From positions 1 to 14,742 of the forward strand of contig JBHHXN010000132.1 of the NCBI GenBank assembly GCA_046757025.1: DNA of 14,742 bases. The letters run 5' to 3'. The stretch comes from a bacterium. Its GTDB lineage: Bacteria > Zhuqueibacterota > Zhuqueibacteria > Oceanimicrobiales > Oceanimicrobiaceae. The position numbers were made by a program, and so were the translations under genes. This document shows, piece after piece, positions 3,299 to 14,742 of this stretch; the stretch's first letter is position 1; the number at the start of each line of letters is the position of its first letter. The notes under the pieces were generated by a model. The model searched no databases and had not been told where the DNA came from. It saw only the letters and a list, made by a program, of their open reading frames with translations.

Positions 3299-3733
3299 CA
3301 GTAGCTGATTAAAATCCAGGGTAAAAGCGCAATTGTTTTATCTGCATCCCTGGCAACTCACCCACGCGCTGTAAATCCCTCGAATTTTTTCAAGAAATTT
3401 TATTCCTGTATTTGCGTTTCCCTGCTGGATAAAATTTGTACAATTTCATTGGATTAAACCCAAAAGTCGTATGATCAATTGTTGCTCAGATTTCAGGCAG
3501 TGGAGTCTCCATCCCGACCACTCGTTTTCTAACCACCTGGAATTTTATTCCATCACACGTACTCAAGGTTCTGTTCTGGCTGACCAAAGCCGTTTGGGGT
3601 TGCCTTGTCAAACGGTCGCGCTGCACTTGAATCAAAGGAAAATGCGCGGCTAAGCGATTGTGTAGATGTTTGAAGTTGTATTGAGAATACATGCTAATTT
3701 GAAATTCTGGTTTTAACTAATCTGGTCGTGATC

Positions 3734-4420
3734 ATGAAAACAACTTTTCAGGGCAAATTCAGCCGCAAGATTTTGCACGTAATCCGGGGGAGAAAATACC
3801 GTTTATCCAGAAATTCAGTTTATTTGCCATGTTTATGGCTGTTACCGCTTTTAATCACGCGCACCGTGAATCTAACCTGGGACGCCAACCCGGACAGCGA
3901 TTTAATCGGATACAGAATTTACTATGGCACCGCCTCAAAATTGTACGATGAGGAAATTTTCGTAGGCAAGGTCACTTCTCACCTCATTCCAAATTTATTG
4001 GAAGGTCAAAAATATTTTTTCTCCTTAACCGCTCTGGATTCAGCCGGAAATGAGAGCGCCTTCGCCGATGAAATCAGCATCGAAATTCCACACGAAAAAG
4101 TGGAACCCGTAGAGGATACCACCCGGGTTACCAACAGTCTGGTTTACAATTTTCCGAATCCATTTAAACCCAACCTGGAGCGCACGCGCATTCGATACGA
4201 GCTTTCCCGCCCTCAGAATGTCACCATCGACATTTTCAACGTCAACAATGAACCCGTTAAAACGCTGGTCAAAAATAAATTGAAACGAGCCGGCGAGCAC
4301 ACCGAAGATGTTTGGGACGGGAAAAATTCAAAAGGGGAAGTGGTGGCCATCGGTGTGTATTTTTGCCGCATCGTGACGGAAGAAAAACAAAAATTCATCA
4401 AAATTGCCGTGACCAGATAA
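3734..4420 (+). CDS. Fibronectin type III domain protein with C-terminal FlgD-Ig / T9SS type A sorting-like domain
   Basis: FN3 pattern VNLTWDANPDSDLIGYRIYYG...NLLEGQKYFFSLTALDSAGNES, followed by VYNFPNPF...VTIDIFNVNNEPVKTL...WDGKNSKGEVVAIGVYFCRI. The start is either ATG 3734 or GTG 3728 (uncertain). Confidence 0.82.
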   Translation: MKTTFQGKFSRKILHVIRGRKYRLSRNSVYLPCLWLLPLLITRTVNLTWDANPDSDLIGYRIYYGTASKLYDEEIFVGKVTSHLIPNLLEGQKYFFSLTALDSAGNESAFADEISIEIPHEKVEPVEDTTRVTNSLVYNFPNPFKPNLERTRIRYELSRPQNVTIDIFNVNNEPVKTLVKNKLKRAGEHTEDVWDGKNSKGEVVAIGVYFCRIVTEEKQKFIKIAVTR

Positions 4421-4436
4421 TCTCTCGAATTATACT

Positions 4437-5810
4437 ATGTTGTGTAAATTAAAAACCGTTTTCTGCGCAGGGGTGATTTTATTGACCGTGGCTCTTTGCC
4501 GGGATAATGTCAGGGCTCAGGATGAAAACAGTTCAGCCGGCGTATTTTTGCGCATGGGGGTAGGCGCTCGTGCTATGTCCATGGGAGGCGCCTTTGTAGG
4601 GATGGCAAACGACCCCTCTGCCACATACTGGAACACTGCCGGCTTGCATCAAATACGCAATCTGCAATTTGAATTCATGAATGTGAAATTGCCGTTCGAC
4701 CGATCGTTTAATTTTTTTAGCGGCGTATTTCCAGTGAAATCGTTTTTTAACGTGGGGATAAGCTGGCTCGGGTTGCAGGTGAGCGACATAGAAAGCCGAA
4801 GCTCGAACACGGCCGCACCGGACAACTTGTTCAACAATTCGCAAAATGCCTTTTTCATCTCATTGGCCAAATCGCTGACACCGATGATCGCGGTCGGAGG
4901 CAATGTCAAGTTGATTCGAAACACCCTGGACAACCTTACCGCTACCGGCGTGGGTTTTGACGCTTCCATTTTGTTCCGACCCTGGCAGCACTTTCAGCTC
5001 GGTTTGCTGGTGCAAAATTTCAGCACCAATTATCACTGGAATATCGGACACAGAGAACAGGTGCCCGTCACCTATCGAGTCGGGGCCGCCTGGCAAATTT
5101 ATCCGGGTTTCATGATTTTGGCCGATATCAACAAAACGGCTAATTTTTCCTCAAAATATCATTTCGGCGGCGAATTTCGGCCGTTGCGTGCCATCCCCAT
5201 TCGGCTGGGTCTGAACGACAACCAGTTGTCTGTGGGTTCCGGTATCGAGATGCCTCTGGCTGATCACAAATTAGAAGTGAATTACGCCTATTCCAACGAT
5301 CAGGTTTTTAACGATGCCATTCATCGGGTTTCGCTGTTATTCTCTGTAGATGAAAAGCCTAGCCAGGTTTCTATCAGCCAGAACCCGGACCTGCCGCGCG
5401 TGGACGTGGAAACGAATGATTTAGATCGCCCGACTTCTCATCCCAAAGCGCCCAGCACCCACACGGATGTAAAAGATGAGCCTGTTGAGCCCAAGAAGGC
5501 TGTTTTGTCATCCCGAGTGAAAAATAAAAAAGGTACGACCCGATCGGTGAACGGGGCCTACCATCCCGGCGATCGCATCGTCATATATATTAAAAAAATA
5601 ACCGACCGCGAAGAAAAATTGCTTAATACTATTTTAGACGCTTTGCAGAATAAATATCAGCACAAGATAACGGCTAGCCGTTTTCGTAAAACCGACTACG
5701 TTTTTACTTTCGTTCCGGAATCGCTGCCTGAGCTTAAAAACGTGTTGAAAGTCATGCTGCGCGTTTTCAACAGCAAAAGATTGAAAGTGTATTCGGCCCA
5801 ATCGGGTTAA
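4437..5810 (+). CDS. PorV/PorQ-family (UPF0164-like) outer-membrane beta-barrel protein with C-terminal extension
   Basis: Signal peptide ending VRA|QD. Family motif FLRMGVGARAMSMGGAFVGMANDPSATYWNTAGL, amphipathic beta strands, and a last barrel strand HRVSLLFSV near aa 304, followed by about 150 extra residues. Confidence 0.85.
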   Translation: MLCKLKTVFCAGVILLTVALCRDNVRAQDENSSAGVFLRMGVGARAMSMGGAFVGMANDPSATYWNTAGLHQIRNLQFEFMNVKLPFDRSFNFFSGVFPVKSFFNVGISWLGLQVSDIESRSSNTAAPDNLFNNSQNAFFISLAKSLTPMIAVGGNVKLIRNTLDNLTATGVGFDASILFRPWQHFQLGLLVQNFSTNYHWNIGHREQVPVTYRVGAAWQIYPGFMILADINKTANFSSKYHFGGEFRPLRAIPIRLGLNDNQLSVGSGIEMPLADHKLEVNYAYSNDQVFNDAIHRVSLLFSVDEKPSQVSISQNPDLPRVDVETNDLDRPTSHPKAPSTHTDVKDEPVEPKKAVLSSRVKNKKGTTRSVNGAYHPGDRIVIYIKKITDREEKLLNTILDALQNKYQHKITASRFRKTDYVFTFVPESLPELKNVLKVMLRVFNSKRLKVYSAQSG

Positions 5811-5843: not shown

Positions 5844-5853
5844 CCCCCCCCCC
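5844..5853. repeat. C10 homopolymer tract
   Basis: Ten consecutive C in the intergenic region. Confidence 0.95.
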
Positions 5854-6098
5854 AAAGTTTCATAAAATTCACTCCGTCGTAATTTCTCCATAAGATGTCT
5901 AATCTCCGCCGTTTTGCTTTGATTCACCGCACCCGCCAGGTAATTTTATTTAAAAAAAGGATAAAAAGTAAAAAATATCTGAGAGAATAGACAAACTAAA
6001 GGTGTCTAATAAGTGTAATTAATTTAACGGCTAAAAAACTGAGCACAGGAAGATTGCCAAAACAGCGGTCATTTCCAATATTGTAAAAGGAGTTTACA

Positions 6099-7610
6099 AT
6101 GATATTGAGTGAAAAAGTCAAATTAACCATTTTTAGTTCAGAAGAATTATCCTGGCGCGACCATCGGGACCGGCTGGATCATTTCTACTGGACGCAAAAA
6201 CATCAATATCAACAACCCTGGTTGGGATCTGAATATCAATCCGCAAAATACTTAAATGCCAGTCTGGCTATCAAAGGAATCGAGGGTAATTATATAGAAT
6301 TGGAAATTCCACGCCAGGCCACCATTGCCGAAGTGATCCAGATCGCGAGAGGTCTGTTTCCGGGTTATGAAAAAGACTTTGAAGAATTTAGCGGGATGCC
6401 GCTTTCCTATCAAATGTATTACCCGGCGCTGAGCGAGAAACCCCTCTCGGCGAACGCCAGCCTTTCCGAGCTGCGCACAACTCATGGTGAAATTCTGGTG
6501 CTAAAACAAATTCTCGGCAATTCAAGAGCCACACCAAAGCGATTCAAGGATTTAACTCACTTCGCGGATATGGTCGCGTTGAACGGCGTCATGCGAGATC
6601 AAAGAAACCCGTCAAAGGATAGTGCCGGTCTTTATGCGGTCCTGCTCTATTCGGAAGTGCACCTGCGATTGGCAACCTACGTTCGAGCGTATTTTGACAA
6701 GCTGCGAAATTGGTCGGGCAATAAATTGATGTTTTACGTTCTGGAAGAGCAACCGCTAAAGAGTCCGTTCTCAAACCCAAATTTCTGGAAAGTGCGGCTG
6801 AAAGATTCCGTGTACCTTACCTGGAGTCTGCTGGGATGGGTTAGAAGTAAACCGTATCAAAAATCCAGGGCAGTCGAAATTGCCCGGAACCTAGGGGCGT
6901 TTGCAGATCAACTACCGTGTGTGGTTTTGTTCGACAATATAGAACGTCAGGAAAAAATCGTCATTCCGGTTCAGGGAGAGTATTCCGCGTTTTTCAGCAA
7001 ATTGTTTTCAACCATTCAGGCCTGCTTGAAAACAGCGGAAGGGAATGGTCATCAGGTCAACGCGGCTGCTCGACTGGCCGCCGTTGGTGTTCCCAACAAC
7101 GGGCATAAGCCAGCCAGAAACAGATTGTTTGAAATGTTCAGTAAGTCCAACGGTCACAATGGTCGGTCGCAAACGCCTGAAAAAGTGGCAGCGTATGAAT
7201 CGCTGCAACAAGCCGACAGCCGGCTCTTTGAGTCTCTACGGGTACGATTGGAAAAATCCCCGAACCGGGAACAACCGCAGGGAACCGTTTTCAATATAAA
7301 CGGCTTTAAGGTATTTGTGAATCATCCGCATGGACTTAAAAAAGTATCGCGGGGAGCCATCATTCACCGTTTGAGAAATCCTTCTTTCGATGACGCCGTT
7401 CCGGATTTGTACAAAATTATACCCGAGCTGATGCGTTTAATCAACCAGCTTCATGAAATGAATGAAATTTCCGTGAGCGTCAAAGAGCAAGCGGTCATGA
7501 CTTTGCATGCGATTGCCGATCAAATTGGCCGTCGCAACGGAAATGGCAAGCGCACTTCGAAGAAAGCGCGGGAGCCTCTTGAATGGCTGGATAGATTAAA
7601 AGCCGCATAA
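6099..7610 (+). CDS. Hypothetical multidomain protein (putative ubiquitin-like domain, thioredoxin-like fold, helical C-terminus)
   Basis: 503-aa ORF with a strong RBS (AGGAG at 6088-6092, 6 nt before ATG). Domain calls come from residue patterns only. Confidence 0.75.
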   Translation: MILSEKVKLTIFSSEELSWRDHRDRLDHFYWTQKHQYQQPWLGSEYQSAKYLNASLAIKGIEGNYIELEIPRQATIAEVIQIARGLFPGYEKDFEEFSGMPLSYQMYYPALSEKPLSANASLSELRTTHGEILVLKQILGNSRATPKRFKDLTHFADMVALNGVMRDQRNPSKDSAGLYAVLLYSEVHLRLATYVRAYFDKLRNWSGNKLMFYVLEEQPLKSPFSNPNFWKVRLKDSVYLTWSLLGWVRSKPYQKSRAVEIARNLGAFADQLPCVVLFDNIERQEKIVIPVQGEYSAFFSKLFSTIQACLKTAEGNGHQVNAAARLAAVGVPNNGHKPARNRLFEMFSKSNGHNGRSQTPEKVAAYESLQQADSRLFESLRVRLEKSPNREQPQGTVFNINGFKVFVNHPHGLKKVSRGAIIHRLRNPSFDDAVPDLYKIIPELMRLINQLHEMNEISVSVKEQAVMTLHAIADQIGRRNGNGKRTSKKAREPLEWLDRLKAA

Positions 7611-7701
7611 GCAGGGTTGTTTCATGCTTATCATTTTGTTAATGGTGGTCCGCTTTTTATTGAAATAGACCATTTGAATTGCGCTCATCGCAAGCACACG
7701 C

Positions 7702-7732
7702 GAAGCAATCCCCGAATCTAGGGGATTGCTTC
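7702..7732. repeat. REP-like palindrome / possible terminator hairpin
   Basis: GAAGCAATCCCC (7702-7713), loop GAATCTA, GGGGATTGCTTC (7721-7732): a perfect 12-bp stem about 90 nt after the stop of the 503-aa gene, followed by CGTCGTTTT. Confidence 0.75.
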
Positions 7733-7945
7733 CGTCGTTTTAAGCTACTCTAACACCTCCGTGGCTCCTAATGTGATTTTCCACCTAAAGTTAGGAAGGC
7801 TTTTTATTGAAGAAATCCTGGTCTCTTTTGTTTACTAATCGATTCCATTCAATACACAAAACTATTTGGTTATTCTTTCGTAAACTATCTCAACCTTCAA
7901 GGTGTTAGCTCAAAATACCCTGCATTTGGACTTTTGAGAGGAGTT

Positions 7946-8956
7946 ATGAACAATCAAAATTTAGAGTGCTTTCGTAAGGCTTTAATCAATCATAGAGATT
8001 CCCTGCAAGACTGGCTGTGTTCCAACTCGAACCAAAAGCAAATTCGTTTGGCCAGCACGGAACAAAATGAGGTTTTGCAGCTCATCGCCGAGATCAAAAA
8101 CGCTCTGGTGAAGATCGAAAAGGGGGATTTTGGCAAATGTCTAGAATGCGGCGAAGACGTCGAATTCGAACAGCTTGAATATGATTTTACTTCCTGCTTG
8201 TGTTTATCTCACTATTCGGAAGCCCAGCTTCGTACACTGGAACGAGAGCTGGAATTGGCCTCACGCGTACAGAAAGATTTGTTGCCCTGCTGTTTACCCG
8301 CGTTGCCCGAAACGCAAATTGCGGCGCACACCGAGTCCGCACGCATTGTCGGTGGCGATTACTACGATTTTTTTGAATTTCAGAACACCACCCAAGGGCT
8401 GGCCATCGCCGATGTCATGGACAAGGGCCTGCCAGCCAGCATGTTGATGTCCAATTTGCAGGCTTCTTTGCGCATTCTCGGCCCGGAACACTCTTCTCTG
8501 GATGCTTTAGCCAAACGATTGAACAAGTTTTTTCTGCACAATCTGAATCTGATTCGATTCATTTCCGTATTTTTGGCCGCTATTGATGTGAAGACAAAAA
8601 CTCTACAATACTGCAACGCGGGGCACCATCCGCCTCTATGGTGGCAAGGCTGTTCGCAAACGATTCACTGGCTGCAGCCAACTGGTCCCGCGCTGGGATT
8701 GACGGCGCATGCCAAATACAATTCGAAATCAGTAAATTATGCAAATGGCGATTTGTTTGTTTTTTATACAGATGGTTTGATAGAAGCAGGTAATAACAAA
8801 GGACAAGAATTTGGCGAAGAAAGCATGGCAGCCTTTGTAAAAGAGCACCAATATTGGTCTCCTGACGAAATTTTAAACGGTCTGCTTGCGGCTGCAAAAA
8901 ATTGCACAGACAGGTTTCATGATGATGTGACTTTAATTGTTCTGAAAGTGGAATAG
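7946..8956 (+). CDS. SpoIIE/RsbU-type PP2C protein phosphatase with N-terminal DksA/TraR-like zinc finger
   Basis: PP2C motifs LELASRVQKDLLP, VGGDYYDF, IADVMDKG, NAGHHPP, YTDGLIEA and DDVTLIVLK. N-terminal ALVKIEKGDFGKCLECGEDV...CLCLSH. ATG 7946 follows GAGAGGAG; TTG 7934 is an alternative start. Confidence 0.9.
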   Translation: MNNQNLECFRKALINHRDSLQDWLCSNSNQKQIRLASTEQNEVLQLIAEIKNALVKIEKGDFGKCLECGEDVEFEQLEYDFTSCLCLSHYSEAQLRTLERELELASRVQKDLLPCCLPALPETQIAAHTESARIVGGDYYDFFEFQNTTQGLAIADVMDKGLPASMLMSNLQASLRILGPEHSSLDALAKRLNKFFLHNLNLIRFISVFLAAIDVKTKTLQYCNAGHHPPLWWQGCSQTIHWLQPTGPALGLTAHAKYNSKSVNYANGDLFVFYTDGLIEAGNNKGQEFGEESMAAFVKEHQYWSPDEILNGLLAAAKNCTDRFHDDVTLIVLKVE

Positions 8957-14096: not shown

Positions 14097-14111
14097 ATTT
14101 GGAGAATGAAA

Positions 14112-14351
14112 ATGTTAACGCAAATCAGCAAAATTGATAAACAGGGCAGAATCGAACTCCCTGATAAAATGCGCAAGGAGTGTGGTCTTCTTCCAGAAAC
14201 TGATGTGCTCATCGAATTAAAAGATGATGGAATTTTTATCAAACCGAAACTCACTACTACACCAATTACACAGAGAATTGCTGAGATGGACTTACCCGTC
14301 TCAGACTGGAAGGAAATAGAAAAAGAAATTGCAGAAGGACATCTTAAATAA
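14112..14351 (+). CDS. AbrB/MazE/SpoVT-family DNA-binding antitoxin (VapB-like)
   Basis: SKIDKQGRIELPDKMRKECGLLPETDVLIELKDDGIFIKP is a swapped-hairpin AbrB pattern. GGAG at 14101-14104 is 7 nt from ATG 14112; ATG 14106 is an alternative. The stop abuts the toxin ATG. Confidence 0.9.
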   Translation: MLTQISKIDKQGRIELPDKMRKECGLLPETDVLIELKDDGIFIKPKLTTTPITQRIAEMDLPVSDWKEIEKEIAEGHLK

Positions 14352-14742
14352 ATGGACGAACCAGTATTTCTGGATGTAAACGTTTTCATGTACGCCGCTG
14401 GCAAACCCACATCCCTACAAGAATCCATGTTTACGCATTTTAAAAGACATTGAAACTCATGCATTAACAGGAGTGGTTAACACAGAAATATTTCAGGAAT
14501 TACTTTATCGATATAGCCACATTGGTTTAATCAAAAAGGGAATTCAACTTTGTAATGATATTTTTAAGTATCCGTTGACTATTTTTCCGGTAACAGAAGT
14601 TGATATTCGCTTTGCAATAGAATTAGTCGAACAGTATAAAAATTATGATATAACACCCCGAGATGCGATTCACGCTGCAACACTCAAAAACAATAAGATT
14701 GAAAAACTAATAAGTGCTGATAAGGATTTCGATAATTTTGAT
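14352..14742 (+). pseudogene. vapC: VapC-family PIN-domain toxin, +1 frameshifted, running off the window end
   Basis: ATG 14352 reads MDEPVFLDVNVFMYAAGKP and then stops at TGA 14451-14453. The +1 frame from about 14407 reads PHPYKNPCLRILKDI...VNTEIFQELLYRY...PRDAIHAATLKNNKIEKLISADKDFDNFD, a typical PIN domain. It is absent from the ORF track. Confidence 0.88.

Follow-up and report, generated by a model that had tools for sequence, protein, structure and literature searches.

The closest described systems to the gene analysed here are BASS and the Bab/Agp pairs, in each of which a short motif is shared between two proteins. In the available portions of the published accounts, the effector carries this motif at its C-terminus and the sensor carries it at its N-terminus (Dyrka et al., 10.1101/2020.01.06.895854; Ibarlosa et al., 10.1101/2024.11.07.622273). 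The same portions of the BASS study describe its motifs as proline-poor, and the motifs of cross-seeding pairs as 43–56% identical (Dyrka et al., 10.1101/2020.01.06.895854).

The stretch of DNA that was analysed, which we call the window, is 14,742 nucleotides long and is one whole contig of a 5.96-Mb genome that is 94.8% complete and holds a single copy of the gene. The gene is best described as one member, fused and eroded, of a family in which the C-terminal slot can hold different parts and a partner gene carries a matching motif. In this family too a short motif is shared between a larger multidomain protein and a second protein, here a small helical one.

Domains and surroundings of the window gene

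The features of the gene are listed in Table 1. The first-pass annotation described it as standing alone behind a strong ribosome-binding site, and this is what is seen: the site is well placed before the ATG, and the flanking intergenic gaps are about 290 and 320 bp. The evidence for the upstream promoter is weak, because nine sigma-70-like sites were observed in the region where 3.2 are expected by chance. One study yielded contigs for this locus in four hydrothermal-vent runs (of which three are possibly the source of the assembly), and none has an indel in the open reading frame, which speaks against an assembly error at its 3′ end. The GC content of the locus is that of the genome.

Table 1. 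Features of the window gene and its flanking signals (window coordinates)
Feature	Position	Strand	Remarks
Sigma-70-like promoter match, putative	6054..6082	+	9/12
Ribosome-binding site AAGGAG	6087..6092	+	six bases 5′ of ATG
503-aa gene	6099..7610	+	Ubl; thioredoxin-like core, inactive; linker; shared motif, decayed; helical partner domain, truncated
Ubiquitin-like (Ubl) beta-grasp, YukD/EccD-like	6111..6515	+	aa 5–139; first strand aa 6–13; insertion aa 14–64
CxxC-less thioredoxin-like core	6615..7043	+	aa 173–315; helical insertion; LPC aa 272–274
Low-confidence linker	7044..7289	+	aa 316–397; repeated NGH words; one helix
Decayed copy of shared motif	7290..7379	+	aa 398–427; 7.4 bits vs 40–59 typical of core-side copies
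Helical domain homologous to stand-alone partner	7407..7607	+	profile positions 3–46 of 83
12-pair hairpin, then T-rich tail, terminator-like	7702..7732	+	

The gene is flanked by a PorP/PorV-like gene on one side and by a SpoIIE-type phosphatase gene downstream. The upstream segment (window 3728–5810) encodes an fn3 and FlgD-Ig protein followed by the PorP/PorV-like barrel, which has an extra C-terminal region; this arrangement is typical of T9SS-like cargo loci. A poly-C tract at 5844, upstream of the gene, differs in length between runs. The phosphatase (7934–8956) has a weak N-terminal match to a DksA/TraR-like zinc finger (E 0.2). Its orthologues are present in five of 20 family genomes; in these five relatives the genes upstream in the window were absent within 1.5 kb of the phosphatase, and no empty insertion site was found. 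At 14106–14742 a MazE/AbrB antitoxin and PIN toxin pair lies within an AT-rich stretch at the contig end, and this pair, 6.5 kb away, is the only defence neighbour at the window locus. Within the linker (7044–7283), the repeats of the NGH word and two RLFE helices suggest an internal duplication.

The first-pass annotation placed a YukD/EsaB-like Ubl domain at aa ~54–138. The beta-grasp fold is borne out. In the model of the window protein, built on 78 sequences, VIA gave the predicted domain (aa 5–138) a best Z of 11.5, with an rmsd of 2.2 over 80 residues, and Z of 9.9–10.5 against YukD, EccD5 and a bacterial E1-E2-Ubl chain. All 36 matches of the family profile to PDB sequences are ubiquitin-like (best E 0.004), and Pfam YukD matches the window protein at E 0.015. 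The extent had to be corrected to aa ~5–139: because the first strand precedes an insertion of ~50 residues that separates it from the rest of the beta-grasp (aa 65–139), the stretch originally noted is only part of the domain. As had been noted, no terminal Gly-Gly follows the domain; GG follows the Ubl in two of the 86 members that bear one. These 86 are found among 102 members whose sequence leaves space N-terminal of the core, the rate being 14/30 among those outside the set from which the profile was built. In some members the Ubl is replaced by pentapeptide repeats, vWA or ParB. The Ubl profile also cross-matches EccD-like proteins and small Ubls.

The core was proposed at first to be a thioredoxin-like fold without CxxC, and at the level of predicted fold it is. 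Folded alone, it gave a pLDDT of 93.9 and the topology of a thioredoxin into which a helical segment is inserted. The best VIA match was to ERp27, with Z 6.9 and an rmsd of 3.5 across 100 residues; this Z is middling and lies below the level that VIA calls clear, and the best 50 rows are mostly thioredoxin- and PDI-family chains. The best Foldseek match had E 0.024. The top fold matches include the non-catalytic, client-binding domains of ERp27 and PDILT, and a UAS domain scored Z 5.5, level with many thioredoxins, with no Pfam UAS match. Searches with the core found only unnamed clusters in the ESM Atlas and only weak thioredoxin matches in BFVD. At the CxxC position, after the first core strand, the family has LYTDED and the window LYSEVH, and neither CxxC nor CxxS/T occurs there in the window or the family. 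The cysteine of LPC is kept in 126 of 129 relatives and Pro273 in all 129, this invariant proline being consistent with the cis-Pro-type loop of the thioredoxin fold in the predicted structure. The window protein matched no named family at curated cut-offs in Pfam, NCBIfam, PADLOC or PHROGs.

Core, C-terminal slot and partner in the family

The first-pass annotation took the protein for an orphan. We rejected this status, since 223 clusters match at E ≤ 0.001, with the best-matching stretch nearly always in the core. We examined 152 relatives. The core is the constant part of the family, and the region C-terminal of it varies: the shared motif ends 51 of the 152, and the helical domain of the partner is found in 25 (24 of them with the motif), while a Pfam search of 105 members found TIR_2 in 16 and PNP_UDP_1 in two. 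A quick tree was built from 130 cores, and slot labels were assigned from the domain and motif results; on it TIR requires six changes, at least four of them forced by well-supported branches, and partner fusion also requires six, at least three of them so forced. Other short G/N/Q-rich motifs take the place of the main motif in the same slot. We therefore regard the slot as exchangeable, and for two types of motif after the core, the main one and one from Nostoc, matching copies occur in neighbouring genes.

Some further arrangements were seen after the core. Eight members (P0002, P0003, P0008, P0012, P0013, P0040, P0046 and P0048) have other G/N/Q-rich motifs there, often followed by different helical tails, and several motif/tail pairs seem to fit the slot. 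At L001:702–2048 the core seems by eye to run into a CHAT-like start, with no Pfam match before the contig ends, and at L005:7896–8929 an EAD1 reading frame overlaps the end of the core, perhaps as a frameshifted fusion.

The main motif is about 25 residues long (F.F.GQT.FIN.P...DFQN, with the core-side form Y.F.GQTVFIN.P.G.V.L.DFQN). It is rich in T, F, I, Q and N and poor in L; its proline is invariant and glycine is scarce. The partner, of about 121 residues (122 in L002, where the core gene overlaps it), has the motif at its N-terminus, then a helical bundle, with a hydrophobic helix last. A profile made from core-side motifs only scored above 10 bits on 42 of 43 partner N-termini and on none of 2150 shuffles. 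The core-side and partner-side consensuses are consistently different, and in unfused pairs 8–15 of 25 motif residues are identical. Similarity of the motifs within a locus is barely above permutation (p 0.02–0.04, uncontrolled for kinship).

The partner has 44 close homologues of 60–80% identity, no Pfam family and no recognisable sensing domain. Leads from the ESM Atlas are DUF4404 (16% of members) and DUF5955 (14%), and the helical part matches the C-terminus of the PADLOC candidate PDC-M14B (E 1.9e-8). The terminal helix peaks in hydrophobicity at residue ~103 and has a median Kyte-Doolittle maximum of 1.8 in 43 partners, a moderate hydrophobicity with which packing within the bundle is possible.

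The pairing was compared in 38 loci: eight with a free motif on the core, four with a fused partner, L020, and 25 without the motif. In all eight free-motif loci, two of which (L010 and L011) are near-duplicates, the partner gene is adjacent to the core gene, downstream in L002, L006, L007 and L016 and upstream in L009–L012. A free partner is also kept upstream in two of the four fused loci (L003 and L033). In L020 the partner is present, and the core, which reads like P0042, is interrupted ahead of the motif, close to where the contig stops. None of the 25 loci without the motif has a partner gene; several of these are duplicates, or are short or truncated ahead of the C-terminus. P0205 carries two full motifs in tandem, as expected from a gene fusion of core and partner. 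In P0203, P0204 and P0206 the motif and helical partner follow N-terminal regions unrelated to the core; in P0206 the motif is present twice, and a precomputed match to PF27061 is on record. The records for core and partner also give equal longest-contig sizes in P0010/P0190 (2782), P0016/P0163 (26843) and P0021/P0183 (4063), an indirect sign that these three pairs may be adjacent as well.

The family is rare and patchy in its distribution. The core was found in none of 60 relatives of the host and in none of 300 genomes from the class of G065. It occurs in nine of 300 genomes from the order of G064 (one broken, one Ubl-only) and strongly in one of 250 from the family of G063, along with 32 weak Ubl-only matches, of which those inspected were three EccD-like proteins and two small Ubls. 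The partner was found in none of 400 Actinomycetota genomes besides the central one, and a pattern scan of viral contigs found neither core nor partner. The unpublished genomes G551 and G593 are the basis of no claim. The Ubl part of the profile also matched small stand-alone Ubls ending in PQVDG (L035 and L038) and a locus with a pair that by eye is E2-like and JAB-like (L072); all three are likely to be Bil/Bub-type systems.

Neighbours of the relatives were scanned with Pfam in 80 ORFs chosen from 23 loci, a selection that takes in most of a list of 99 plus some others and carries no background rate for defence genes. Integrases, a resolvase and transposases lie near many relatives. Defence genes include SMODS with SLATT and a pPIWI nuclease (CBASS) in L017, TIR-GAP1 in L009, EAD1 in one of the 23 loci (L005), type III restriction and a methylase in L066 and L022, and a GT4-conflict gene in L024; L002, L003, L075 and L076 sit among ordinary genes. 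E1, E2 or JAB genes, which had been suggested as neighbours, are absent from these 80 ORFs, among which no NTPase, secretion or AAA-chaperone gene recurs either. On plasmid p057_A of Nostoc sp. C057 (L077:340–12962), seven proteins share the motif NSQF.GG...NA..V.A.QIGG.I. The carriers are a pentapeptide protein, NACHT, NB-ARC-TPR and AAA_35 proteins, the core and two unnamed proteins, such that six neighbours have the motif that ends the core, and the NACHT, NB-ARC-TPR and AAA_35 proteins among them carry it N-terminally. The searched part of the BASS data file (PMC8086366) contained no AQFAG, SQFGG or QIGGN, and from its sequences the island is possibly another undescribed amyloid network.

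In the window copy the partner has become part of the same gene. The alignment to the partner covers residues 398–482 and takes in the motif (E 1e-6; E 1.9e-4 in a genome search), and we therefore read the helical tail as a fused partner. The motif and the origin of the tail were overlooked in the first reading, which had described only amphipathic helices at aa ~436–503. Helices are predicted there (437–453, 459–481 and 487–502), and the amphipathic character is clear for the first (moment 0.70) and weak for the second (0.27). The tail ends before the terminal hydrophobic helix, and its Kyte-Doolittle maximum is 0.5 compared with the partner median given above. The core departs from the family at T185S, D188H, Y259V and R300S, so that it differs at four of the 16 core columns conserved at ≥85%; three of the 127 others lose as many or more. 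No free partner was found in the host genome, as far as its 94.8% completeness reaches. Having lost the motif, the terminal helix and four conserved residues of the core, and with no free partner found for it, the copy probably works poorly or not at all.

It is possible, with the odds somewhat against it, that this gene alone is instead intact and has become specialised, as a single-gene form, for a new ligand, which would be compatible with the model for the family. The open 503-codon frame, the ribosome-binding site and terminator, the lack of indels in four runs and the high confidence with which the Ubl and core folds are predicted suggest a gene that is perhaps specialised rather than dying. 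So do its tree neighbours: the copy falls outside the main fused clade, and the nearest rows (P0017, P0085 and P0148; support 82) are likewise diverged, P0017 and P0148 showing similar changes. Such specialisation would, however, have to accommodate the loss of a terminal helix that all 25 fused relatives reach, two substitutions (Y259V and R300S) seen in none of 129 relatives, and variants across runs (A156V, Y438D and S460N) that are all non-synonymous, a small number of three with one at depth 2.8. Just past the stop codon, an out-of-frame hydrophobic ORF of 14 codons (7624–7668; T7631C in three of four runs) may be what is left of the terminal helix or may have arisen by chance; no test lent support to the former. 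In G965 (L071/L073) a core copy is interrupted by many stops, so decay occurs elsewhere in the family.

Proposed mechanism and alternatives

We propose, at roughly even odds (a probability of about 0.5), that the gene is a fused, eroded copy of a two-part defence module: the core would be its sensor, and a motif of amyloid type would relay the signal to a membrane-acting partner. A constant module that is repeatedly joined to TIR or PNP is most simply a sensor, which is an established pattern in bacterial immunity; because the core is repeatedly joined to both, we read it as the sensor. The partner would be the effector and the motif the coupling, because both replace the enzyme where the enzyme is missing. 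On this model, the core would bind an invader protein and cluster, and the clustered core would activate whatever the slot holds, either an enzyme in cis (TIR as NADase, PNP as nucleosidase) or the motif. Clustered core-side motifs would convert the matching N-terminal motif of the partner, and the C-terminal hydrophobic helix of the partner, once freed, would insert into the membrane and so halt the infected cell. Points against this model are the moderate hydrophobicity of the helix, which could stay packed in the bundle, the weak within-locus similarity of the motifs, and a window locus whose one defence neighbour is the MazE/PIN pair. The motif is likely to be an amyloid-type signalling motif by analogy, since its length, its composition, the 8–15 identities in 25 and its sharing between adjacent genes match such motifs. 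The first-pass annotation had suggested an adaptor in a signalling or conflict/defence system; the TIR and PNP fusions and the defence and mobile-element neighbours argue for the conflict or defence role, and adaptor is not the best description.

A bolder form of this model, tentative and with the odds clearly against it, sees a new single-step sensor made of a thioredoxin decoy and a Ubl bait, with a new amyloid motif of reversed polarity, a new membrane executioner acting through its C-terminal helix, and a slot exchangeable between networks. T7-type polymerases borrow host thioredoxin, and it is this borrowing by phages that prompts the decoy. In the accessible text of a recent report, the phage Cas12p likewise hijacks host thioredoxin (PMC13728456). 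Decoy and bait, on an equally doubtful footing, would catch invader proteins that hijack host thioredoxin or cut ubiquitin-like proteins, and the executioner would, just as conjecturally, be an inverted analogue of HeLo/MLKL. If the thioredoxin fold is a decoy, bacteria would be guarding a host factor that phages borrow.

Two rivals to the sensor–relay–partner model remain because the published polarity is reversed here, an invariant proline is unusual for such motifs, and in the Nostoc island the arrangement suits signalling the other way round, as in published systems. That last point counts against our model and leads to the first rival, which we think unlikely: in an amyloid-type relay running the other way, the core with its C-terminal motif would be an effector or downstream adaptor, like Bell-BASS and Bab, and proteins with the N-terminal motif (the NLRs in Nostoc, elsewhere the small helical protein) would trigger or cap it. 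It would restore the arrangement in which the effector bears the C-terminal motif, it suits the N-terminal copies on the NACHT, NB-ARC-TPR and AAA_35 proteins of the island, and the conserved polar set and cysteine of the core could be an active site. However, several direct fusions of the core to TIR and PNP effectors are the usual sign of a sensor, and the 121-residue partner is without a recognisable domain that could do the sensing in its place.

The second rival, which we consider distinctly unlikely, takes the motif as a folded beta-module that joins proteins one-to-one in the manner of EADs, or takes the partner as an inhibitor of the core. The invariant proline, the consistent difference between the core-side and partner-side consensuses, and the high conservation of the partners (60–80% identity) would all be natural here; one copy on the core and one on the neighbour is the EAD pattern, so far as the available text of PMC7159879 describes it, and EAD1 takes the same position in L005. 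A length of ~25 residues is, however, far shorter than the helical EADs, other short G/N/Q-rich motifs swap into the same slot, and the first half of the motif resembles the actinobacterial BASS cluster C03, a likeness by eye only and to the part of the BASS material consulted. It is highly improbable that the family serves outside defence, as an accessory in chaperone, redox or secretion functions (a UAS-UBX analogue, say, or a type VII secretion Ubl), since ERp27, PDILT and UAS (Z 5.5) among the fold matches and the cross-matches of the Ubl to YukD/EccD are set against the TIR and PNP fusions, the patchy spread, the mobile and defence neighbours, and scanned neighbours in which secretion and AAA-chaperone genes never recur.

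The sensor–relay–partner model brings together three uncatalogued parts: a thioredoxin-fold core that would drive TIR and PNP, a paired motif not among the BASS sequences searched, and a 121-residue candidate executioner whose layout is the reverse of Bab/HeLo. The two-gene unit is ~1.5 kb and is directly testable for amyloid relay and phage defence. For such experiments the window gene is the least useful member, and L002, L009 or a TIR-fused member would be a better choice.

Comparison with known systems

No description of the family was found in the literature searched, the figures and supplements of which could hold one. Among related systems that depend on a Ubl or a thioredoxin-like domain, the resemblance is to single domains. 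Like the Ubls of YukD/EsaB, EccD and Bil type, the window Ubl is a beta-grasp of the non-conjugated type, but it is internal, has a large insertion and has no terminal glycine, and neither secretion nor conjugation genes were found close by. The conjugated systems (Bil, Bub and CBASS Cap2/3) share the beta-grasp with it and differ in having a C-terminal glycine, rare after the Ubl here, and E1, E2 or JAB, none of which turned up among the neighbours scanned. In comparison with UAS-UBX adaptors the domain order is reversed, the Ubl standing before the thioredoxin-like core. HEC-07, a defence candidate, has a CxxC-less thioredoxin-like domain before its effector, as here, but in the portion of its description that was available it has an AdoMetDC-like N-terminus and a RelE RNase (10.1101/2024.01.29.577857). 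The PADLOC HEC models matched none of 78 family members at E ≤ 0.001; PADLOC as a whole gave no match to the window protein, and in the 78 members only part matches to TIR, PNP and PDC-M14B.

The EAD systems, as the available parts of Kaur et al. (PMC7159879, PMC8195603) present them, resemble this family in having a coupling module on both a core and its neighbour and in having swappable effectors, and EAD1, GAP1 and GT4-conflict genes lie near some relatives. They are unlike it in that here no NTPase (MoxR, STAND or GTPase) recurs and no E1, E2 or JAB was found among the neighbours scanned, and the coupling would be through a short motif. This core is not described in the searched parts of these two papers, and the word thioredoxin does not occur among the matches listed for them.

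The Bab/Agp system, within the part of Ibarlosa et al. (10.1101/2024.11.07.622273) that was available, consists of two genes: their products, a helical protein of ~110–120 residues and a larger multidomain protein, share a motif. Bab, however, has an N-terminal hydrophobic helix and a C-terminal motif, the opposite of the partner here, and Agp is TPR-GreA/B-PIN as compared with the Ubl and inactive thioredoxin of this family.

BASS, again as described in the available text, has several features in common with the family. Both have a beta-prone motif of ~25 residues in adjacent genes, C-terminal in one and N-terminal in the other; both include all-in-one fusions, have TIR and PNP as alternative effectors, and occur in Actinobacteria and Cyanobacteria. 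Unlike BASS, the main pair has no NLR, the N-terminal copy of the motif being on a 121-residue helical protein; an N-terminal copy on NB-ARC or NACHT proteins is seen only for the different motif of L077. Gene order varies here, and the motif has no G-phi-Q-phi-G core. The Bell layout, with an N-terminal helix and a C-terminal motif, is reversed in the partner. GQTTF, GQTVF and DFQN had no match in the searched part of the BASS data file (PMC8086366).

By analogy, then, the module appears to work like a BASS or Bab/Agp relay, and it departs from BASS in the NLR and in the Bell layout. Judged from sequence, the core and the motif are absent from the catalogues searched, where the partner matches a PADLOC candidate in its helical part, and the principle by which they would be coupled is one already known from BASS and Bab.
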